DNA from: Bacillota bacterium | GTDB taxonomy: Bacteria; Bacillota; Limnochordia; Limnochordales; ZCTH02-B6 | DNA: 64,000 nucleotides | Direction: 5' to 3' | Assembly (NCBI GenBank): GCA_017578085.2 | Contig: PKQR02000001.1 | Location: forward strand, 7,105 to 71,104 | Shown: in pieces, positions 5,747 to 53,794 of the stretch | Layout: each line of letters starts with the position of its first letter | Numbering within the stretch: the stretch's first letter is position 1 | Translations under genes and position numbers: made by a program | Notes under the pieces: generated by a model | What the model saw: only the letters and a program-made list of their open reading frames with translations | Told to the model about the DNA's origin: nothing | Databases searched by the model: none

Positions 5747-7809
<2,063 letters not shown>

Positions 7810-42044: not shown

Positions 42045-42833
42045 TTGATCAAGGTGCTCATCGCCGACAACAACATGCCGTTGTGCGCCTCCCTCAGCGA
42101 TTTCCTCAACGGCCTGCCCGACATGGAGGTGGTCGGGTGCGCGTATGACGGGGAAGAGGCGCTGGAGCTCATCGCCAAGACCCAGCCGGATGTGGTTATT
42201 CTCGACATCACCATGCCGCGGCTGGACGGCATGGCGGTCTTGGAACGCCTCCCCGACCTCAAGCTTGAGCGCCGTCCCAGGATCATCGTGTTGACCGCCT
42301 TGGCCCGTGAGGACATCGCCAAGCGGTTCACCGAGCTGGGGGCCGATTATTTCCTGCTCAAACCTTTTGACCTTCAGCTTTTGGCGGAGCGGATACGGCA
42401 GTTTGCCAACGAGCGGCCGGCGGAGCCTGCACCGGTCGCACCTGCGCCGGCACGGCCGCCCGTTTCCCGGACGCACAACCTGGAGGCCATGGTGACCCGC
42501 CTTTTGCACGAGATGGGCATGCCGGCCCACTTCAAGGGGTACCAGTACCTGCGGGATGCCGTGCTGATGGCCGTCGAGGGAACGGACCTGGTCGGCGGCA
42601 GCCTCAGCAAGGAAGTGTACCCGCGGCTTGCCAGCAAGTACAACGCTACCCCGGGCGGCGTCGAGGCGGCCATCCGCAACGCCCTGATCGCGTGCTGGGA
42701 GAACGGCAACCGCGCGTTCCTGGAGCAGCTGACCGGGCAGTCGGGCCGCACCCGCAAGGGCCGGTTCCCGACCAACTCCATGGTCATCGCCCAGCTAGCG
42801 GACCAGCTGCGGATGCAGGTGCGGGCGAGCTAG
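42045..42833 (+). CDS. spo0A: Stage 0 sporulation response regulator Spo0A
   Basis: TTG 42045 follows AAGGAGGGG. The receiver domain has VVILDITMPRLDG and LLKPF. The diagnostic Spo0A C-terminal domain has LLHEMGMPAHFKGYQYLRDAVLM, ..VYPRLASKYNATPGGVEAAIRNAL.. and FPTNSMVIAQLAD. Confidence 0.95.
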   Translation: MIKVLIADNNMPLCASLSDFLNGLPDMEVVGCAYDGEEALELIAKTQPDVVILDITMPRLDGMAVLERLPDLKLERRPRIIVLTALAREDIAKRFTELGADYFLLKPFDLQLLAERIRQFANERPAEPAPVAPAPARPPVSRTHNLEAMVTRLLHEMGMPAHFKGYQYLRDAVLMAVEGTDLVGGSLSKEVYPRLASKYNATPGGVEAAIRNALIACWENGNRAFLEQLTGQSGRTRKGRFPTNSMVIAQLADQLRMQVRAS

Positions 42834-43557
42834 GCACAAGCCCCAGCTGGGCTTTCACCTTAACAAGTGCCAGCAGCCCCTGCGTGCGCTGGGATTCGCC
42901 TTCGTCGAGCCGTTTCTTGGCGGCGGCGAGCGGCTCCGGGCGCAGGGTGCGGGCGTACTGCTGCAAGTGGGTGATGGCGGCCCGTTTGTTGGCCAGGCTG
43001 TAGTGGAAGTTGTCCAGCGCCTCCCGCAAACCCCGCTGATGTTCGAGGTTGAGGGTTTCGGGGGGCGTCAGGTCGTGCAGGGCGAGGTGGGCCTGCTTGA
43101 TGTCCTGGGAGTAGCGGGCGAGGTGAACCCAGGCGGTAAAGCGGTCCAGCGCCCCCGCGCTCAATCCGTCCAGCACGGCCGGCACCGCGCGCAGGGCCCG
43201 CTCGGCTTCCTCGTACGCGGCCAGCAGCGCGTCTTCCCACTGCCGGAATGTCTTTTCTTGCTCGGGAAACACCGTCTGCGCCTGGGGAACCGCGGGAGCG
43301 TTCTGTTCAGCGGCCTGCAGGGCCGCCCGTATGGGCACGGGTGGCCGCGTGTCGGGCAAGCCTGCGGCGCCGGGAGCGGCGCGGGTGGGCGGCGCCGCGC
43401 CGAGGAAAAGCAGGCTCAGGCCCAAGGCGGCTAGACACCCCGCTCGCGCCCGGGTGCGGATCACGCGACGGTCCAAGCGCCCCGACGCAAGGCCAATAAG
43501 CCCCAGAAAGAGGCCCGTCACACCTAGCGCGGTCACCGCCACCAGCAGCGTTTCCAT
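42784..43557 (-). CDS. Hypothetical membrane-anchored helical protein
   Basis: The tracked ORF runs to 43785 but would cover the tRNA and its terminator. ATG 43557, behind GAGGAGGG, gives 257 aa. The protein has two N-terminal hydrophobic segments, a Pro/Ala linker, and then a helical domain (..FRQWEDALLAAYEEAERAL..). I recognise no family. The 3' end overlaps spo0A by 50 nt. Confidence 0.55.
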   Translation of the reverse strand: METLLVAVTALGVTGLFLGLIGLASGRLDRRVIRTRARAGCLAALGLSLLFLGAAPPTRAAPGAAGLPDTRPPVPIRAALQAAEQNAPAVPQAQTVFPEQEKTFRQWEDALLAAYEEAERALRAVPAVLDGLSAGALDRFTAWVHLARYSQDIKQAHLALHDLTPPETLNLEHQRGLREALDNFHYSLANKRAAITHLQQYARTLRPEPLAAAKKRLDEGESQRTQGLLALVKVKAQLGLVPSSPAPASAAGPLAGR

Positions 43558-43610
43558 GCAGCCCGGGCCCTCCTCGCGCCGTAGGGTGCCCACCGGGCGG
43601 GGTCCGCAAA

Positions 43611-43647
43611 CCGCGAAAAAAGCGCCGGTCAAAAAAAGACCGGCGCT
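43611..43647 (-). terminator. Intrinsic terminator downstream of tRNA-Pro
   Basis: On the minus strand, the perfect 10-bp stem AGCGCCGGUC/GACCGGCGCU has a U7 loop and is followed by UUUUUU. Confidence 0.7.
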
Positions 43648-43656
43648 CTTGGCCTC

Positions 43657-43734
43657 TGGTCGGGGTGACTGGATTTGAACCAGCGACCTCACGGTCCCGA
43701 ACCGTGCGCTCTGACCAAGCTGAGCTACACCCCG
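43657..43734 (-). tRNA. tRNA-Pro (anticodon CGG), CCA encoded
   Basis: The reverse complement folds as a cloverleaf. Acceptor stem CGGGGUG/CACCCCG. D arm GCUC..GAGC. Anticodon stem CACGG/CCGUG with loop UUCGGGA (CGG, G37). T arm GCUGG-UUCAAAU-CCAGU. Discriminator A followed by CCA. Confidence 0.95.
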
Positions 43735-43756
43735 CGGACTGGGAACCGCAACGTTA

Positions 43757-43785
43757 AGTATACAGGAGGGCCCTGGCAGTGTCAA
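43757..43785 (-). promoter_or_regulatory. Consensus sigma-A promoter of tRNA-Pro
   Basis: The minus strand reads TTGACA (43785-43780), an exact 17-nt spacer, then TATACT (43762-43757). The -10 ends 22 nt upstream of the mature tRNA 5' end. Confidence 0.7.
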
Positions 43786-43991: not shown

Positions 43992-45047
43992 GTGACCACG
44001 GGCACGAAGGCGACAACCGAACGGCGTGTCAACCTGTACGGCATGGGCCTTGAGGAACTTACGGCCTTCGTCCAGGAGCTGGGAGAGCCTGCCTACCGGG
44101 CGAGGCAGCTGATGGAGTGGCTCTACCAGCACCACGTCACCGATTTCCACGCCATGACCAACCTCCCTAAGGCGCTGCGGCACACCCTGGCCGAGCGTGC
44201 CACGGCCGAGGCGCCCACAGTGGCCCACGTGCAAGTGTCCACCGACGGTACCCGCAAGTACCTGTTGCGGGTTTTCGACGGCGACACGGTGGAAGCGGTC
44301 CTGATCCCGGAAGGAGAGCGGCTGACCGCGTGCTTGTCGTCGCAGATTGGTTGCGGCATCGGCTGCCGGTTTTGCGCCACCGCCCTCATGGGCCTAACCC
44401 GCAACTTGGCCCCGGGGGAGATCGTCGGGCAGCTGGCCGCCATCCAACAGGAATCGGGCCGCCGGGTCACCAACGTGGTCATGATGGGCATGGGCGAGCC
44501 GCTGGCCAACTACACCTCGGTCATGCGGGCGCTGCGGCTGATGAATCACCCGCTGGGCTTTGGCCTGGGAGCCCGCCGGCTGACGATCTCCACTGTCGGC
44601 ATCGTGCCGCGGATCCGGGATCTGGCCCGGGAAAATCTGCAAGTGGGGCTGGCGGTTTCGCTGCACGCGGCCGATGACGAAACGAGGGATCTGCTGGTGC
44701 CCATCAACCGGCGCTACCCGATTGCGGAGCTCATGGCCGCGGTCCGGGACTACATCGAGCAGACCCACCGGCGGGTGACGTTCGAATACGTGCTGCTGCG
44801 CGGCGTCAACGACTCGCCCGCCGACGCCCGCAAGCTCGCAAAATTGCTGGAAGGTCTCTTGTGCCACGTGAATCTCATACCCTTCAATCCGGTGCCGGAA
44901 ACCGGGTTTGAGAGGCCGGAAGCCGCGGTCATCAAGCGTTTCCAGGAGGAACTGACCAGCAGGGGCATCCCGGCCACCGTCCGCCGCTCCCGGGGGAGCG
45001 ACATCGACGCGGCGTGCGGCCAGCTGCGTCGCCGTCAGCCGGTGTGA
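43992..45047 (+). CDS. rlmN: 23S rRNA/tRNA adenine-C2 methyltransferase RlmN (radical SAM)
   Basis: The start is GTG. Motifs present: YRARQLMEWLY, the radical-SAM cluster SSQIGCGIGCRFCAT, MGMGEPL and the C-terminal DIDAACGQL. Confidence 0.94.
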   Translation: MTTGTKATTERRVNLYGMGLEELTAFVQELGEPAYRARQLMEWLYQHHVTDFHAMTNLPKALRHTLAERATAEAPTVAHVQVSTDGTRKYLLRVFDGDTVEAVLIPEGERLTACLSSQIGCGIGCRFCATALMGLTRNLAPGEIVGQLAAIQQESGRRVTNVVMMGMGEPLANYTSVMRALRLMNHPLGFGLGARRLTISTVGIVPRIRDLARENLQVGLAVSLHAADDETRDLLVPINRRYPIAELMAAVRDYIEQTHRRVTFEYVLLRGVNDSPADARKLAKLLEGLLCHVNLIPFNPVPETGFERPEAAVIKRFQEELTSRGIPATVRRSRGSDIDAACGQLRRRQPV

Positions 45048-45156
45048 TTGGCGGTGGAGCTGGTGGTCTGGGTCGCGCGCCTGGTCATCCTGGCCGGTCT
45101 TGTGCAATTCATCCGGCGGGTGGCGGCCAGTTGGCGGGACACGGAGGGAGCAGGCA

Positions 45157-45855
45157 GTGGACGTCGGGGCAAGGACCCACGTCGGCAAGGTGCGGCGGAA
45201 GAATGAGGACGGCTACCTAATCCGGGGAGGCCTCCTGGCGGTGGCCGACGGCATGGGAGGCCACCTGGCCGGAGAGATTGCCAGCGGTACTGCGCTGATG
45301 GTTCTCCGTGACTACCCCTTTGGCTCTGGCGAACCGGCGGCAGAACTGGAGGAAGCCATGAGGGCGGCCCACGCCCGCGTGCGGCAGCTGGCCGCCGAAG
45401 AACCGTCCATGGCAGGGATGGGGACGACCCTGACCGTGGCGCTGCTCCGCCCCGGACGGGTGCACGTCGGCCATGTGGGCGACAGCCGCCTCTACTTGTG
45501 GCGCCGGGGGGAGCTGCGGCAGATGACCGCGGACCATTCGGTCGCTGCTGAGCTGCTCCGGGCTGGACAGATCGACGAGGCGGCCGCGCGGGTGCACCCG
45601 CACCGGCACGTGCTGACCCGCGCCATCGGCGCCCTGCCGGAGTTGGAAGTGGATCTTATCGAGTTCCCGCTGGAGCCGGGCGACGGCCTGCTGCTGTGCA
45701 CCGACGGCTTGAGCTGTTTGGTGGACGAAGAAGATATGCTCCGGGTGCTGGCCGAGCACCCCACCGCCCAGGCCGCGGCCGACGCGCTGGTGCAGCTCGC
45801 GCTGGCCCGGGGGGGCATCGACAATGTCACTGTTGTCGTGGCGCGCCCGGATTGA
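45157..45855 (+). CDS. prpC: PP2C-family Ser/Thr protein phosphatase (PrpC/Stp)
   Basis: GTG 45157 follows GGAGGGAG. Motifs present: THVGKVRRKNEDGY, AVADGMGGH, LLLCTDGL and GGIDNVTVVV. Confidence 0.92.
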   Translation: MDVGARTHVGKVRRKNEDGYLIRGGLLAVADGMGGHLAGEIASGTALMVLRDYPFGSGEPAAELEEAMRAAHARVRQLAAEEPSMAGMGTTLTVALLRPGRVHVGHVGDSRLYLWRRGELRQMTADHSVAAELLRAGQIDEAAARVHPHRHVLTRAIGALPELEVDLIEFPLEPGDGLLLCTDGLSCLVDEEDMLRVLAEHPTAQAAADALVQLALARGGIDNVTVVVARPD

Positions 45856-48436
45856 ATCCAGGCCGCTGGAACGGTCGCTGCTTGCTGCGGCGCTCGTGCC
45901 CTGCGGTCTGCTGATCGCCCTCTCGCGCTGGGTGGACGGGGGATGGTCCGTCGGCTTTGCACTGCTGGCCGGCCATGCCGCTTTATTCTTGGGGCTGCAC
46001 GCGGCTATAGCGCTCGTGCGGCCGACGGCGGATGCCGTCTTTTTGCCGCTGGTGGCCATGCTGAGCGGCGTGAGCCTCGCGATGTTGGCCCGGCTGGATG
46101 CAGGGTTGGCTGTCAGGCAGCTGTGCTGGCTTGCAGCAGGGGGAGCGCTGCTTGTCGCTGCAGCGGCGCTGGGGCCGGTGCGCCTGCCCGCACGGGCGGC
46201 GGAGGCCATGGCCGTTGTAGCCGTCTCGGTCTTAGCGGCCACCGCGCTGTTTGGCACGGCAGCGGGCGGTGCGCGGTCGTGGCTGGTCGCGGGACCAGTG
46301 CGGTTACAACCCGTCGAAGCGGCGAAGGTGGTCCTGGTCTGGTGTTGGGCCCGGTGGCTGGCTCCCAGTCCCGCCGTGGGGCGCACCCTGCTGGTGGCCG
46401 GGCTAGCGTCACTGGCCCTTGTGGCCCAGCGGGAGCTGGGCTATCCGCTGCTGCTCTTGGCCACCGCTGTCTTGATGGTGTATATTGCCGCCGGAAAGCG
46501 CGGTTTTCAGCCGGCGCTACTGGCGGCAGCAATCTTTGTGGCGGCCTGTGCGCCAATCTTTGCCATGAATTCCGCGGCCGGCCAGCGGTGGTTTCCCCAC
46601 CTTCCGGGACGACTGGTGGCCTGGCTTGACCCGTGGGCCGAACCTTTCGGCGCGGGGTTCCAGGCGCTGCAAGGCTTGTTTGCCCTGGCGGAAGGGGGAC
46701 TGCTGGGCCGGGGCATCGGCGTCGGGTCACCTGAGGCCATCCCGGCTGTGCATACCGACTACCTTTTGGCTGCGGTGGGCGAGGAGCTGGGGTTTCTAGG
46801 CACGGCGGCGCTCCTCGCTGCCCTGGCGCTGTTTGTGGCCCGTGCCCTTTGGATCGCCCAGCGGGCCCCGGGTGAGACCGAGCGGCTCTTGGCGGCGGGG
46901 CTTGGCCTTGTGGTAGGTTTGCAATCGCTTTGGATGGCGGGTGCCCTGGTGCGGGCGCTTCCGTTGAGTGGGGTGGGACTGCCGCTGGTCAGCTACGGCG
47001 GCAGCGCCGCCTTGGCGCATATGGCCGCGGTCGGGCTGCTCTTGGGGACCAGCGCCGGGGTGCCGGCCGCCGGCTACGACGGGCATAAGCCGGAAGCCCT
47101 GGCTGCTCGCCGTGTGCGTGTTGTGGGATGGGGACTGGCGGCGGGCGCCGCGGCGGTTGTCGTCTTGCTAGGGTATTGGCAGACGGCACGGTCTGACCTG
47201 CGCACGCACCCCTTCAACCCACGGTTCACGGTGCGGAGCCTTGCGGCCAGGGGAGGAATCCTCGATCGCCACGGAGAAGCGCTGGCCGAGACCCACGCGG
47301 TAGGCGACGGCATGGAGCGGCGCCTTTTGGGACCGGCCAGCCTCAGCCATGTGGTGGGGTACGTGGACCCGCGGTTTGGCCTGGCCGGCATCGAAGCGGC
47401 CCGGCAGGCGGACTTGGCTGGGCTGGATCGGGGCCTCGTCGATTGGTGGCGGGATCCGCTGCGGCGGCGGCCTGAGGGGAAGGACGTGTGGCTGACCATC
47501 GACGCCCGGGTGCAGGCCGCCGCCGAGCGGGCCCTCGGCAACCGGCGCGGCGCGGTCGTCGCGCTTCGCCCGCGGACAGGCGAGGTGCTGGCGATGGTCA
47601 GTTATCCCGCTTTCGCACCGGAGGAGCTTCCACGGCTGCTCCGCGCGGGAGAGCACGGGGGCGAGGCACCGCTGTTCAACAGGGCGGTCCAAGGACTGTA
47701 CCCGCCGGGGTCCACTTTCAAGGTGCTGACGATGGCAGCCGCCTTTGACGCGGGCCTCATCGGATCCCAGCAAGAGCTGGAGGCGCTGCAGAGGGCCTTG
47801 GCAGCATCTTCCAACGAACCCTTTGCCAACCTTGGTCTACAATTGGGCGCGAGAGAGTTGGCCGCTGTTGCCAGTCGCGTCGGCTTCGGCTCGCAACTCG
47901 TGACGGACTTGCCCCACGCGATTTCGCCGCTGCCCGGCGCAGTCGCGGCAGGGGACCTGGCTCAAATCAGCATCGGGCAAGGGGAGCTGGTGGCCACGCC
48001 CCTGCAAATGGCGGTCGTCGCGGCCGCCATTGCCCACGGAGGCGTCGCGATGCGCCCGCACCTGGTGCGGGAGATCCGCACAAGGGATGGCCGTATCGCG
48101 CACTTTACCCGCGTCGAGCCCCTAGGGCCGCCGGCGTTTTCGCCGGCCGCGGCGCGGGCCGTGACGGAAGGCATGGTGCTGGCCGTTGAGGAAGGCACAG
48201 CCCGCCAGGCCGCGTTGGACGGGGTACGCGTGGCGGGGAAGACGGGCACCGCGCAAAATCCCCACGGTGAAGCCCACGCCTGGTTTATCGGCTTCGCGCC
48301 GGCCTTCAGGCCAGAGATAGCGGTGGCCGTCATCGTCGAAGGTGGCGGCAGCGGCGGGCAGGTGGCCGCACCCGTGGGCCGGGATGTCATGCTGAGCGCC
48401 TTGGAAGCGATGCGCGCGGCGGCTGAGGTGAACTGA
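45824..48436 (+). CDS. Fusion of SEDS peptidoglycan polymerase (RodA/FtsW family) and class B penicillin-binding protein (transpeptidase)
   Basis: This is a single uninterrupted 870-aa ORF. The N-terminal part of about 415 aa is polytopic and carries SEDS strings RLQPVEAAK, GRGIGVG..AIPAVHTDYLLAAVGEELGF and PLVSYGGSAAL. An extra TM helix follows (VVGWGLAAGAAAVVVLLGYW). The PBP pedestal and transpeptidase then carry SxxK = STFK (47711-47722), SSN, and KTGT (48239-48250). Confidence 0.88.
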   Translation: MSLLSWRARIESRPLERSLLAAALVPCGLLIALSRWVDGGWSVGFALLAGHAALFLGLHAAIALVRPTADAVFLPLVAMLSGVSLAMLARLDAGLAVRQLCWLAAGGALLVAAAALGPVRLPARAAEAMAVVAVSVLAATALFGTAAGGARSWLVAGPVRLQPVEAAKVVLVWCWARWLAPSPAVGRTLLVAGLASLALVAQRELGYPLLLLATAVLMVYIAAGKRGFQPALLAAAIFVAACAPIFAMNSAAGQRWFPHLPGRLVAWLDPWAEPFGAGFQALQGLFALAEGGLLGRGIGVGSPEAIPAVHTDYLLAAVGEELGFLGTAALLAALALFVARALWIAQRAPGETERLLAAGLGLVVGLQSLWMAGALVRALPLSGVGLPLVSYGGSAALAHMAAVGLLLGTSAGVPAAGYDGHKPEALAARRVRVVGWGLAAGAAAVVVLLGYWQTARSDLRTHPFNPRFTVRSLAARGGILDRHGEALAETHAVGDGMERRLLGPASLSHVVGYVDPRFGLAGIEAARQADLAGLDRGLVDWWRDPLRRRPEGKDVWLTIDARVQAAAERALGNRRGAVVALRPRTGEVLAMVSYPAFAPEELPRLLRAGEHGGEAPLFNRAVQGLYPPGSTFKVLTMAAAFDAGLIGSQQELEALQRALAASSNEPFANLGLQLGARELAAVASRVGFGSQLVTDLPHAISPLPGAVAAGDLAQISIGQGELVATPLQMAVVAAAIAHGGVAMRPHLVREIRTRDGRIAHFTRVEPLGPPAFSPAAARAVTEGMVLAVEEGTARQAALDGVRVAGKTGTAQNPHGEAHAWFIGFAPAFRPEIAVAVIVEGGGSGGQVAAPVGRDVMLSALEAMRAAAEVN

Positions 48437-50634
48437 TGATCGATACCGTTTTGGCCAATCGATATAGAATCCAGGCCAAGATCGGTGACGGCGGCATGGC
48501 CGTCGTGTACCGGGCGCTCGACCTCCTGCTGCATCGTCCGGTAGCCATCAAATGCCTGCGCCCGCAGTTTGCCAGCGATCCGGAGTTCCTGCAGCGATTC
48601 ATGCAGGAGGCGCAGGCGGCGGCCAGCTTGTCCCATCCCAACGTGGTGAACATCTTCGACGTCGGCCACGCCGGCGACGTCCACTATATCGTCCTCGAAT
48701 ACGTACAGGGCCGCAACTTGAAGGAGATACTGCGGGAGGAAGGCCGGCTGCCGCCCAAGCGGGCCGCCCACATCGCCCGGTCCGTGGCGCGGGCGCTGGA
48801 GGCCGCCCACCGGCGGCAGTTGATTCACCGGGACATCAAACCCCACAACATCCTCATTACGCCGGAGGGCCGGGTCAAAGTCACGGATTTCGGCATCGCC
48901 CGGGCCGCCAGCGCGGCGCAGCTGACGCAGACGGGCACCGTCATCGGGTCAGTGCACTACTTTTCCCCGGAACAGGCGCGGGGCGGGCCGGTCGGGCCCG
49001 CTTCGGACCTGTACGCGCTGGGCGTCGTCCTCTACGAGATGTTGACGGGCACCGTGCCCTTCCGAGGGGATAGCCCGATCGCTGTGGCCTTGAAGCACCT
49101 GGAGGAGGAGCCCGTGCCGCCCAGCCGCCTGGTCCCTTCAATCCCGCCGTGGCTCGAACAGGTGGTGCTAAAGGCGCTGGCCAAGGACCCGGCGCAGCGG
49201 TACGCGTCCGCCGAGGAAATGGCGCAGGACTTGGTCTGGCGCGACACGGCGCCGGCGCCGCTCCCGGCAGGGGAGGAGGATGACTGGCTGGGCGCGCCGG
49301 CCGAACCCCCGGATGTGCGGGCTGCGGGCGAAGAAGCCACCCGCCGCGTCGCGGCCGTGGGAGCCCGGGCGGTGCCGGAACAAGGCCGGCGGGAGCTGGC
49401 GCCGCCCGCTGGGGCCCAACGGGGTAGCGCAAGCGATGGAGCCAACGGGGCCGATGGAGCGGACGCGGACCAGGTGGACTCCGTTGCGGCGGGCGCCGCG
49501 GGCGACGGCGTCCGGCACCGGGGCAGGCGCCGGGGGCTGGTGTTGGCCCTTCTCCTGTTCGTCCTGCTGGGTGCAGCTGGCTACGCCGCCACACCTTATG
49601 TCCTTAGCCTGATCTTCCCGCCCGAGGTGACGGTGCCGGATGTCGTCGGCCTCACCTACGCCGAGGCCCGGGGGCTCATGGCGGCAAACGGCTTGATCCT
49701 CGTCATCGAGGCGGAGCGGCACGACCGCCATGTGCCGGCAGGCCACATCATCCGGCAAAATCCCGAAGGCGGCCGCACCGTACGCCAGGGGCGGACGGTG
49801 TATATAACGCTCAGCCGCGGCCCGGAGCTGGGCGTCGTGCCCGATGTGACCGGGCGGCCGCTGCGGGAGGCGCGGCTTGTGCTCACCCAGGAAGGCTACG
49901 TCCTGGGCGAGGAGATCGCGGCGTTCGAGCCCGGGGTGCCGGTCAACTATGTGGTGGGACAGGAGCCGGCGCCCGGTGCCGAGGTGGAGAAGGGGACACC
50001 GGTTAACCTGTGGGTCAACCGGCCGCAGGAGGAGGCGGCCACGGTCGTCGTGCCCGATGTGCGGGGCCGCACCCTGGCTGACGCGAAAGCCCAGCTGGAG
50101 TCGCTGGGGCTCGTCCTGGGCAACGCGTGGCCGGAAATCAATCCGCTGATCCCGGCGGGCCGCATCATCGACCAAAACCCGCCGCCCGCTTCCAGTGTGG
50201 AGCAAGGCACGGCGGTAGACGTGGTGTACAGCGGCCCACCGGTTCCGGACGCGCGCGGCGGTCAGGAGACCCAGGCTGGCTCAAGCCAGGCGCCCGCGGG
50301 TGGGGAGATGGCGCCCGCGCCCGGCGGGCAGGCGCAAACCGGCGCGGTGGTTGGCGAGGGCGTCGCCGCGGCCGAGGGCGAGAACTGGGAGAGCGCCCTG
50401 CGCGCGGCCGACCAGAAGCGCCGGACCGCGAGGGTGGATATTTACGTTCCTCCTGGGCCGCCGCAGGAGGTCGTCATCCTGGTCATCGACGACTTCGGCG
50501 CTCGGGAGGTGTACCGGGAAGCGCTGCCCGGCGGCACCCACGTGCGCCATTTCGTGGAAGGGCGGGGCGACAACGCACGGCTCCAAGTCTACATTGGCGG
50601 CATGATGGAAGTGGACCAGCCCTTCCCGCGCTGA
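48436..50634 (+). CDS. prkC: Ser/Thr protein kinase with PASTA repeats (PrkC/PknB type)
   Basis: The ATG shares 1 nt with the preceding TGA. The kinase domain has GDGGMAVVY, AIK, HRDIKPHNIL and DFGIA. A Pro/Ala/Gly-rich linker and one TM segment follow, then three PASTA-like units (VPDVVGL.., VPDVTGR.., VPDVRGR..) and a C-terminal beta domain. Confidence 0.94.
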   Translation: MIDTVLANRYRIQAKIGDGGMAVVYRALDLLLHRPVAIKCLRPQFASDPEFLQRFMQEAQAAASLSHPNVVNIFDVGHAGDVHYIVLEYVQGRNLKEILREEGRLPPKRAAHIARSVARALEAAHRRQLIHRDIKPHNILITPEGRVKVTDFGIARAASAAQLTQTGTVIGSVHYFSPEQARGGPVGPASDLYALGVVLYEMLTGTVPFRGDSPIAVALKHLEEEPVPPSRLVPSIPPWLEQVVLKALAKDPAQRYASAEEMAQDLVWRDTAPAPLPAGEEDDWLGAPAEPPDVRAAGEEATRRVAAVGARAVPEQGRRELAPPAGAQRGSASDGANGADGADADQVDSVAAGAAGDGVRHRGRRRGLVLALLLFVLLGAAGYAATPYVLSLIFPPEVTVPDVVGLTYAEARGLMAANGLILVIEAERHDRHVPAGHIIRQNPEGGRTVRQGRTVYITLSRGPELGVVPDVTGRPLREARLVLTQEGYVLGEEIAAFEPGVPVNYVVGQEPAPGAEVEKGTPVNLWVNRPQEEAATVVVPDVRGRTLADAKAQLESLGLVLGNAWPEINPLIPAGRIIDQNPPPASSVEQGTAVDVVYSGPPVPDARGGQETQAGSSQAPAGGEMAPAPGGQAQTGAVVGEGVAAAEGENWESALRAADQKRRTARVDIYVPPGPPQEVVILVIDDFGAREVYREALPGGTHVRHFVEGRGDNARLQVYIGGMMEVDQPFPR

Positions 50635-52398: not shown

Positions 52399-52663
52399 AC
52401 CCGGCCGGGATGGTCCCGGGGGAGCGGCGAGTACGCCGTTATTGGGGGTTGGTTGATCGGGAAAAACGCGCCGGGTGCCAGTGGCATCCTCTCCGTCCAC
52501 AACGCAACAATTCAAAAATCACCCCTGATGGGCATGGTTGGCTGGTGGTTTTCTCGCGGATAGGGACGGTCAGCCGTCGCTCCCCTCCCATGGGACCTGG
52601 CATCCGCCTTCTTCCTTGCGGCGGACCACCGCCAGCCGCCCTGGCAAGGAGAGGAATCGACCC
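52399..52663 (+). ncRNA. Candidate structured RNA (6S-like rod, or a long regulatory 5' leader) of about 210-265 nt
   Basis: This region is non-coding by my assessment, because the first RBS plus start is at 52664. Three blocks totalling 19 bp pair 52408-52426 with 52578-52605. An apical hairpin lies at 52473-52489. An A/U-rich stretch lies at 52506-52521. There is no terminator before the CDS. The fold was done by eye only. Confidence 0.4.
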
Positions 52664-53794
52664 TTGGGAGGGAAACGCGAGACGGCTGTCCCCGAGATGT
52701 CCAAAACGGCTCTCGTCCAGGCAGTGCTTGGGTCGATGCGCCGGGAGGCGCTCCGGCGGCGTCGCCGTCCCGTCCTGGGGGCCGCGATCTGGGGACAGTT
52801 CCACGAATGGGTGCGCGATGAATCGGTAGAGGCCGTGATCATCCACGGCACCAGCGGGGTGCACGTTCTTCAATCCGGCGCGTGGCGGGAAGCACAGAGC
52901 CCGTTTGTGCGGGAACAGCAGGTGCGGGAGCTGCTCCGGCGCTTGACGCTAAATCCGAGGCGCGATCGCCATCCCGTACACGTGCCGCTGCCCGAAGGCT
53001 TTGAACTGTTCTCTTGGCAAACTGTTGACCGCGGCGAGACCGTCCTGTTCTTTCGACGGCTGCGCCCGGTGCCGCCGGCGCCCGCCAAGCTCAATGAGCT
53101 CTGGCGCGGGAACCGGGAGGGGCTGCGGCTGGTGGCCAGCGCGCTCAGCCGGCGGCAACCGGTGCTGGTGTGTGGCCCAGGCCAACACGCCAGGGAACAA
53201 GTGCTGCTCGCGCTCAGCGGCCTGCTGGAACCAGGAACGCGAGCGGTTTGGCTTGTGGATGCAGGGCGCCCGTTGCCTGCGGCGGGTGCCGCGGCGGTGG
53301 TCAGCATCGACTGCCAGCGGCTGCATGCCGACCCGTTTGCGGCCCGGGACGTGCTGCAGCAGCTCCTGGCCTTGTCCCCCGATTGGATCGTCGCTCAGGA
53401 CGCACCATCCCCGCTGTTGGCGGCGGTGGCCGACGGGCTGAGGTCCGGCCGGTGGGGATTTATGGCTGCTGCCGGCTTCCCGCTGCAGCGCAGCGCCCCG
53501 GCGCGCCCGGGGCGGGACGCTTTGGCTCGATCCCAGGGAGTGCCGGAGCCCTTTCGCTGGATCGTAGAGGTCGGCGGTTACCGGAGGCCGGTGATCGAAG
53601 GCGTGTGGCGGGCGCTGCCGGGCGCAGGTCCCGCCCGCACGTGGCGGAGACTCCGGGGGAGCGAGCGGACCGTAGCCCTGCGGCCCATTCCGGTGCGTTC
53701 GGCCCGCAACCAGGCCAGCCGCCTCGTGTTCGGCAACCCCATCGGCAACAGGGCTGTGCCGGCAAGGGAGACCGAGGGGAGCTCTTCCGATTAA
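52664..53794 (+). CDS. CpaF/VirB11/PilT-like secretion-ATPase homologue with degenerate Walker A and Walker B (predicted pseudo-ATPase)
   Basis: The tracked ORF starts at 52538. TTG 52664 lies 9 nt after AAGGAGAGG. The N-terminal domain (VEAVIIHGTSGVHVLQSG) and a core aligning to ..ILISGGTGSGKTTLLNAL.. are recognisable, but the core here reads VLVCGPGQHAREQVLLAL (53162-53215). The Walker B-like string is PDWIVAQD. The opposite-strand ORFs in this interval look like GC artefacts. Confidence 0.6.
   Translation: MGGKRETAVPEMSKTALVQAVLGSMRREALRRRRRPVLGAAIWGQFHEWVRDESVEAVIIHGTSGVHVLQSGAWREAQSPFVREQQVRELLRRLTLNPRRDRHPVHVPLPEGFELFSWQTVDRGETVLFFRRLRPVPPAPAKLNELWRGNREGLRLVASALSRRQPVLVCGPGQHAREQVLLALSGLLEPGTRAVWLVDAGRPLPAAGAAAVVSIDCQRLHADPFAARDVLQQLLALSPDWIVAQDAPSPLLAAVADGLRSGRWGFMAAAGFPLQRSAPARPGRDALARSQGVPEPFRWIVEVGGYRRPVIEGVWRALPGAGPARTWRRLRGSERTVALRPIPVRSARNQASRLVFGNPIGNRAVPARETEGSSSD

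Follow-up and report, generated by a model that had tools for sequence, protein, structure and literature searches.

A probable single-chain RodA/PbpA-type peptidoglycan synthase encoded between the phosphatase and PASTA kinase genes of a Limnochordales genome

Natural proteins that join a SEDS polymerase and a penicillin-binding protein (PBP) transpeptidase in one chain have already been catalogued. A 2025 survey in Microlife counts 117 InterPro chimeras with both SEDS and transpeptidase domains, averaging about 950 amino acids (aa) and found in both domain orders (PMC12516126). Among them, the 931-aa chimera of Senegalimassilia faecalis combines glycosyltransferase, PBPA_dimer and transpeptidase domains, is flanked by Ser/Thr kinase and phosphatase genes, and coexists with canonical FtsI and MrdA and with their glycosyltransferases (PMC12516126). 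Fusions of the same kind have been engineered from RodA and PBP2 of Escherichia coli with linkers of 8-15 residues, (GGGS)x3 or TSGSGSGS; they restored rod shape, polymerised lipid II and bound bocillin, and their structure was solved by cryo-electron microscopy as 8TJ3 (PMC6207328, PMC10449877). In addition, the linkage of pstP, rodA, pbpA and a PASTA kinase gene is conserved throughout Actinobacteria, where these genes are co-transcribed (PMC6554272). Here we describe a fusion of a SEDS protein with a class B PBP (bPBP), encoded by a single open reading frame (ORF) in a stretch of 64,000 nucleotides (nt) from a Limnochordales bacterium (assembly GCA_017578085.2, contig PKQR02000001.1, positions 7,105 to 71,104 of the forward strand; this whole stretch is called the window below). 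Our data indicate that this Limnochordales ORF (Bacillota, Limnochordia) very probably encodes a genuine peptidoglycan synthase of the RodA-PbpA type, which has been maintained in evolution as a single chain.

The ORF consists of 870 codons, from an ATG start to a TGA stop, and its product has a calculated mass of 89.6 kDa and an isoelectric point of 9.7. The assigned start is supported by the N-terminal sequence MSxxSWRARIE, which is conserved in the orthologues. The order of modules is the SEDS domain, a presumably cytoplasmic linker, the transmembrane (TM) anchor of the bPBP, a pedestal and the transpeptidase domain, and the coordinates of all of them are collected in Table 1. An AlphaFold2 (AF2) model built with 31 homologues (mean predicted local distance difference test (pLDDT) 85.7, predicted TM-score 0.71) gives the same succession: the SEDS half forms 12 helices, the last of which is connected by a coil (aa 411-421) to the long bPBP helix (aa 422-455), and a small α/β pedestal and the PBP fold come after it. 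An earlier note on this DNA, prepared from the sequence without database searches, had described an uninterrupted 870-aa fusion ORF with the SEDS motifs QPVEAAK, HTDYLLAAVGEELG and SYGGSA, one more TM helix, a junction free of stops, a short pedestal, and the transpeptidase motifs STFK and KTGT. Each of these elements is present: the SEDS motifs lie at aa 162-168, 310-323 and 390-395, respectively, the nucleotide positions given for STFK and KTGT are exact, and the domain scan and the search for orthologous fusions that it proposed both agree with its interpretation, as detailed below. The tblastn search of the 64-kb window with the fusion protein found no paralogue.

Both catalytic halves are recognised with scores far above the family cut-offs. 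The Pfam profile FTSW_RODA_SPOVE (PF01098) matches aa 72-408 (E=1.3e-57, 195.9 bits versus a cut-off of 26.4) over positions 12-349 of its 356, and the Transpeptidase profile (PF00905) matches in two stretches over approximately aa 548-856 (E=1.6e-53, 182.3 bits versus 22.1). In a phmmer comparison the SEDS half is similar to E. coli RodA (8tj3_B, 3.6e-35). Alignment with this chain and with RodA of 6bar_A places D312 opposite the Asp of the HTDF motif (D262 of E. coli RodA, D255 of Thermus thermophilus RodA, the catalytic residue in extracellular loop 4) and W153 opposite the conserved Trp of both structures, whereas QPVEAAK is aligned with QPSEIAK and QPLELAK, so that E165 and K168 form the Glu-Lys pair of the QPxExxK motif. 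The 12 predicted helices of the SEDS half, by hydropathy and AF2, are the 10 helices of the core and two more at the N-terminus (hydropathy peaks at aa 14-38 and 42-66, AF2 helices at 14-33 and 41-65), and the anchor adds one to this number. Since the number of extra helices is even, the two termini of the SEDS half would stay on the same side of the membrane. Members of this RodA subfamily have the two-helix extension whether they are fused or not, a Streptomyces protein being one example; it is thus a trait of the subfamily and not a consequence of the fusion.

At the junction, no stop codon interrupts the linker between the SEDS core and the anchor helix, which is visible both in the hydropathy profile (aa 431-455) and in the AF2 model. 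The codon-position GC signature (high at positions 1 and 3, low at position 2) runs through the junction unchanged, which shows that it hides no compensating frameshifts. The earlier note had also reasoned that the topology of the two proteins is compatible with fusion. For this class of proteins the topology is validated experimentally, since the engineered fusions of the same order are active both in vivo and in vitro (PMC6207328, PMC10449877).

The fusion is not restricted to the assembly analysed. A word-indexed protein search returned an identical protein, represented by 11 member sequences, from JGI and Logan data, as well as six more fused clusters with 64-90% identity, annotated as metagenome-assembled genomes of Limnochordales or as 'Firmicutes bacterium ZCTH02-B6'. 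The fused orthologues, at least seven in total, come from NCBI, ENA, JGI and Logan assemblies, that is, from independent samples and assemblers. Every Limnochordales orthologue is translated through the junction without a stop. The linkers of the orthologues, 24-33 aa long, vary in sequence and length, but at the nucleotide level their lengths always differ by multiples of three and remain in frame. Three species representatives of the fused orthologues (L001-L003) were identified in a scan of genome contigs that yielded 22 loci, and these three are the only true fused orthologues among the 22. The same scan does not allow fusions to be claimed in Marinimicrobia, KSB1 and Zixibacteria: although many matches of the scan spanned approximately residues 98-856 of the query, the ORFs of L004, L013 and L019 are a separate mrdA of about 590-604 aa followed by a separate rodA of about 416-422 aa. 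Two short representatives considered as possible split forms in close relatives were rejected, P0043 because it begins inside the TM helix and is thus a fragment, and P0057 because the Arg-rich tail at its end looks like the product of a frameshift; neither of them speaks for fission or against it.

The PBP half appears to be of the PbpA type. With phmmer it is matched best by the PBP domains from the 'peptidoglycan glycosyltransferases' of Atopobium parvulum and Eggerthella lenta (5e-54) and by PbpA of Mycobacterium tuberculosis (4e-48); the alignment with the latter (3un7) begins at aa 460 of the query and residue 6 of the structure. In the Foldseek comparison with PDB, all top 50 matches to the fusion are PBP chains, with the Atopobium, Eggerthella and M. 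tuberculosis PbpA structures first (target-normalised TM-score (TMt) 0.78-0.85 over approximately 440 columns) and the canonical PBP2 and PBP3 structures ranked after them with lower TMt. As the earlier note remarked, the pedestal is short, with some 92 aa (456-547): the transpeptidase domain starts approximately 96 residues past the anchor, and residue 551 of the fusion corresponds to residue 243 of Pseudomonas aeruginosa PBP2. This would be explained by a PbpA type of the PBP half, since in such proteins the N-terminal module has only about half the size of that in PBP2. The profile PBP_dimer_2 (PF21922) matches aa 476-537 weakly (23.5 bits, below the cut-off of 27), and fusions with 34-40% identity to the protein of the window do carry this domain. 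The motifs STFK, SSN and KTGT are invariant in the alignment of the Limnochordales orthologues.

Two observations weigh against a straightforward interpretation of the protein as a standard, fully active synthase. First, the scores of the NCBIfam equivalog models are well below their cut-offs for RodA (TIGR02210, 168.3 versus 336.7), FtsW (TIGR02614, 185.5 versus 337.5) and MrdA (TIGR03423, 264 versus 455), which means that the fusion is not orthologous to the canonical pairs of the elongasome or divisome. It should be named a RodA/PbpA-type fusion, rather than an elongasome RodA-PBP2 or a divisome FtsW-FtsI. Second, competence in transpeptidation is not guaranteed, because a deletion of 23 aa removes a β-sheet beside the active-site helices. 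From K633 to S662 the spacing is 28 residues in this protein and in all Limnochordales orthologues, versus about 51 between SxxK and SxN in other fusions with the three motifs intact; the segment is also of full length in unfused relatives such as P0062, and the deletion was found in none of the non-Limnochordales fusions examined. The phmmer alignments with 4n1x and 3un7 break at this site, where 34 residues of 4N1X (chain 214-247) are reduced to 11. The AF2 model of P0008, a fusion with 40% identity (pLDDT 88.8), has four short β-strands at aa 640-662 between two helices; in the model of the window protein the site is only a coil of six residues with no β-sheet. Thus the usual bPBP spacing of about 50 residues with a small β-sheet is absent here, whereas the other features that define bPBPs, the domain match and catalytic residues of SEDS proteins, and the joined domains of natural chimeras are present.

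The deletion bears directly on the alternative that survives best, namely that catalysis is impaired in the PBP half, whose main role would be to activate the SEDS polymerase allosterically or to act as its scaffold from within the same chain, while cross-linking is performed by other PBPs. That no four-stranded β-sheet is left between the helices of SxxK and SxN is in agreement with such a role, as is the observation that the TM helix of PBP2 packs on the RodA core and by itself stimulates polymerisation (PMC10449877). Moreover, between one quarter and one third of the fused clusters in other lineages, a count that is approximate since it relies on hmmalign with a single-sequence model, lack SxxK, SxN and KTG (they have, for instance, AALQ, ACP and HWG) and retain the W, E, K and D residues of the SEDS half. 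A fused bPBP can therefore persist without transpeptidase chemistry, and its only remaining role in these proteins may be that of an activator or scaffold. Such motif-less clusters include P0009-P0014, P0089, P0116, P0135, P0145, P0147, P0159, P0163 and P0180, among others; one of them, P0010 (locus L024), adjoins rtcB and archease and has no kinase gene nearby. However, in the Limnochordales all three motifs are strictly conserved despite identities of 64-90%, and the AF2 model is confident around the deletion (pLDDT 92-98 over aa 621-660). We therefore consider loss of catalysis unlikely in this clade and, because the catalytic motifs are invariant there, favour an active though remodelled transpeptidase, judging from the sequences and the model. 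A more far-reaching proposal is that the protein would be a streamlined, kinase-coupled synthase, perhaps the principal one of elongation, in which the transpeptidase without its β-sheet would have an altered substrate or β-lactam specificity or a mainly regulatory role; we regard this as speculative, with a rather small chance of being correct.

Still less probable is that the fused ORF yields two polypeptides, by initiation at an internal start near codons 413-434 or by proteolysis of the linker, which would leave an ordinary non-covalent pair. In-frame GTG codons do occur at positions 413, 431 and 434, the linker is poorly conserved, and a minor fraction of the engineered RodA-PBP2 fusions was found to be cleaved (PMC6207328, S5 Fig). 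However, none of these GTG codons is preceded by a GGAGG-like Shine-Dalgarno sequence, and no in-frame start codon is retained at the junction across the orthologues (RRVRVVGW, RRVCLTGW, RRLVLISR, GRVRRLAG). In addition, the fusion has persisted through deep divergence, and there would be no point in keeping it if the two chains always ended up apart. Finally, an assembly or sequencing artefact, in which an indel deleted the rodA stop and joined two genes, might be suspected from the overlap of only 4 nt between rodA and pbpA in the nearest unfused relatives, where one indel could imitate a fusion, and from the frameshift-like tail of the short representative P0057, but it is effectively refuted and for practical purposes excluded, since independent orthologues read through the junction with linkers varying in frame, the identical protein recurs in JGI and Logan data, codon-position GC is continuous, and about 100 more fused clusters are present in the representative library described below.

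For a genuine single-chain synthase of the RodA-PbpA type, the following scheme can be proposed. The SEDS half would polymerise lipid II into glycan strands via D312. The linker would then lead the chain back through the membrane as the bPBP anchor helix, presumably packed on the SEDS core, and the pedestal and the transpeptidase domain (S630/K633, S662/N664 and K806-T-G) would cross-link the nascent strand. Expression and regulation of the protein would take place within the PrpC/PrkC module of wall sensing, as for the actinobacterial pstP-rodA-pbpA-pknB genes.

An exhaustive phmmer search of 1.84 billion representatives produced 51,548 matches; among the best 150, approximately 100 are proteins with a length of 790 aa or more in which the match spans the junction. 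The statement of the earlier note that a covalently fixed synthase of this kind is unusual is thus overstated, in view of both this number and the chimeras catalogued previously (PMC12516126), although such fusions are still uncommon in comparison with split pairs. The closest unfused relatives of the SEDS half (P0021 and P0022, approximately 43-46% identity in the SEDS core) belong to FhaA-FhaB-rodA-pbpA clusters, where the stop of rodA and the start of pbpA lie within a 4-nt overlap (GTGA). In the unfused PbpA of locus L028, approximately 30 cytoplasmic residues precede a TM helix that ends with the same GYWQ as the anchor of the fusion. Loss of the rodA stop in such a pair would give exactly the observed architecture, and the fusion most likely arose in this way from adjacent, stop/start-overlapped rodA and pbpA genes. 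For each half, fused relatives are intermingled with unfused ones of similar identity (the unfused PbpA P0062, for example, shows 56% identity, versus at most 49% for the best fusions outside the clade), which suggests that fusion or fission has occurred more than once. The loci of the unfused relatives L028 and L029, with FhaA and FhaB upstream, represent another tie to the actinobacterial fhaA-fhaB-pstP-rodA-pbpA cluster.

Table 1. Positions in the window of the fusion ORF, its parts and the adjacent genes
Feature	Positions	Strand	Details
rlmN, radical-SAM rRNA methyltransferase	43992..45047	+	Pfam RlmN_N, Radical_SAM
PP2C-type Ser/Thr phosphatase (prpC/pstP-like)	45100..45855	+	Pfam PP2C_2 8.5e-15, PP2C 1.4e-13
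Whole fusion ORF	45824..48436	+	SEDS glycosyltransferase joined to PbpA-type class B PBP
N-terminal extension, two extra hydrophobic helices before canonical SEDS TM1	45824..46036	+	aa 1-71; hydropathy, AF2
SEDS (FtsW/RodA/SpoVE) glycosyltransferase core	46037..47047	+	aa 72-408; Pfam 1.3e-57
SEDS residues	W153 46280-46282; E165..K168 46316-46327; catalytic D312 46757-46759	+	
Presumably cytoplasmic linker TSAGVPAAGYDGHKPEALAARR	47048..47113	+	aa 409-430; 22 aa, polar
bPBP membrane anchor helix, ends in GYWQ	47114..47188	+	aa 431-455; hydropathy 2.05, AF2 helix 422-455
Short pedestal, probably PbpA-type, non-catalytic N-terminal module	47189..47464	+	aa 456-547; phmmer, Foldseek
D,D-transpeptidase domain	47465..48406	+	aa 548-861; Pfam 1.6e-53
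Transpeptidase motifs	STFK 47711-47722; SSN 47807-47815; KTGT 48239-48250	+	aa 630-633; from aa 662; aa 806-809
Site of 23-aa deletion between SxxK and SxN	47750..47788	+	aa 643-655; alignments, AF2
PASTA Ser/Thr kinase (prkC/pknB-like)	48436..50634	+	Pfam Pkinase 1.7e-54, PASTA x3 1.5e-44

The fusion gene is tightly embedded among its neighbours. The 3' end of the phosphatase gene extends 32 nt into it, its TGA stop and the ATG of the kinase gene have one base in common (TGATG), and a GAGGTG Shine-Dalgarno sequence of the kinase lies within its last codons; these overlaps look like classic translational coupling. No terminator-like sites above chance were found between the genes of the run from rlmN to rpe. 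The window as a whole is syntenic with the 'ylo' region of Bacillus: NFACT (yloA-like), P-type ATPase, yicC, gmk, priA, def and fmt are followed by the genes for a Zn-peptidase, RsmB and a Spo0A-like regulator and by a tRNA-Pro on the minus strand, and then by rlmN, the PP2C phosphatase gene, the fusion, the PASTA kinase gene, rsgA and rpe, with fakA and recG further downstream. Compared with Bacillus, the window has the fusion inserted between prpC and prkC. The same gene order, from rlmN to rpe and with the PP2C phosphatase, fusion and PASTA kinase genes on one strand, was observed in L003, L026 and L027. The locus of P0008 (L023), whose fusion is 40% identical to that of the window, reads priA-def-fmt-rsmB-rlmN-[FHA protein]-fusion-PASTA kinase-rsgA-rpe. 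Since P0008 sits in the same frame of genes, the insertion of the fusion predates the Limnochordales clade. The gene directly upstream of the fusion in L023, in the position of the PP2C phosphatase (6558-7004), encodes a small FHA-domain protein.

As the minus-strand tRNA gene interrupts the plus-strand run, the unit rlmN-prpC-fusion-prkC-rsgA-rpe probably begins after it, with rlmN as its first gene. The tRNA is tRNA-Pro(CGG) at 43657-43734, with a sigma-70-like promoter (11/12) at 43785-43757. An ORF of 333 aa on the same strand (42784-43785), which has no Pfam match and runs across the tRNA, is unlikely to be a gene. Downstream of rpe, a 418-aa ORF at 52538-53794 (+) likewise has no Pfam match, and L026 has a 351-aa gene without Pfam domains at this place. 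The Spo0A-like response regulator is encoded at 42045-42833 (+), between rsmB and rlmN (Response_reg and Spo0A_C, 2.7e-26). Limnochordales are spore-forming Firmicutes, and a Gram-negative-type envelope is known from Limnochorda pilosa. The regulator fits a spore-forming Firmicute host, and its position is unusual compared with that of spo0A in Bacillus. Unrelated to the fusion, a PyrR-binding-site RNA (Rfam RF00515, 61.8 bits versus a gathering threshold of 54) is located at 5788-5920 (+).

Covalent joining of SEDS and bPBP fixes a 1:1 stoichiometry, which is convenient for structural and biochemical study and is the reason why the engineered fusions were built and solved. The fusion described here provides an example from the Firmicutes (Limnochordia) among the natural chimeras, and it demonstrates that the order phosphatase, synthase, PASTA kinase occurs outside Actinobacteria. 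Regulation of the synthase by the flanking PrpC/PrkC pair is plausible by analogy, given the apparent translational coupling and the actinobacterial precedent. In addition, the Limnochordales proteins represent a natural deletion variant that tests how much of the transpeptidase domain is dispensable.

Several known systems resemble the fusion in part. In the M. tuberculosis cluster fhaA-fhaB-pstP-rodA-pbpA-pknA-pknB, the order of phosphatase, SEDS, PBP and PASTA kinase genes is the same, RodA has the same two-helix extension, and PbpA has the same short pedestal and transpeptidase domain (RodA/PbpA, Rv0017c/Rv0016c; 3LO7, 3UN7). In contrast, the window has one chain instead of two, no FHA genes, one kinase, and flanks of the Bacillus ylo type. 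The PBP domains of A. parvulum and E. lenta, known from crystal structures (4JBF, 4N1X and 4MNR, and also β-lactam complexes) and acylated by penicillins, are the best matches of the C-terminal half both in sequence and in fold (TMt 0.81-0.85), but they keep the segment of 34 residues of which the window protein has 11. These structures probably derive from fused proteins as well, judging from the title of 4MNR ('D,D-transpeptidase domain of peptidoglycan glycosyltransferase') and from the identity of 64% between the A. parvulum domain and the C-terminal halves of P0077 and P0078, two fused clusters. Class A PBPs also combine a polymerase and a transpeptidase in one polypeptide; however, their polymerase is a soluble GT51 domain, the fold of which is unrelated to the polytopic SEDS half. 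In the profile search the fusion had no significant match to GT51, and PBP_1a matched only over the transpeptidase part.

The engineered RodA-PBP2 proteins have the same connection as the natural fusion, from the SEDS C-terminus to the bPBP N-terminus through a short cytoplasmic linker. They are artificial and have the long PBP2 pedestal with its head sub-domain and a RodA of 10 TM helices, whereas the natural protein of the window combines a PbpA-type pedestal with a SEDS half of 12 predicted helices. Phrase searches of the literature for a natural SEDS fusion, or for Limnochorda with RodA, returned nothing relevant. The closest described relative is the chimera of S. faecalis, with the same domain content and order and the same kinase and phosphatase flanks. 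The two differ in lineage (Actinomycetota/Coriobacteriia versus Bacillota/Limnochordia), in length (931 versus 870 aa) and in the 23-aa deletion, and only the fusion of the window is embedded in a Firmicute rlmN-prpC-prkC-rsgA-rpe operon. Thus no new enzyme class is described here, as the existence, architecture and genomic context of such fusions have been published. The features specific to this locus are modest: the deletion confined to Limnochordales and the location of the fusion inside a Firmicute prpC/prkC operon.

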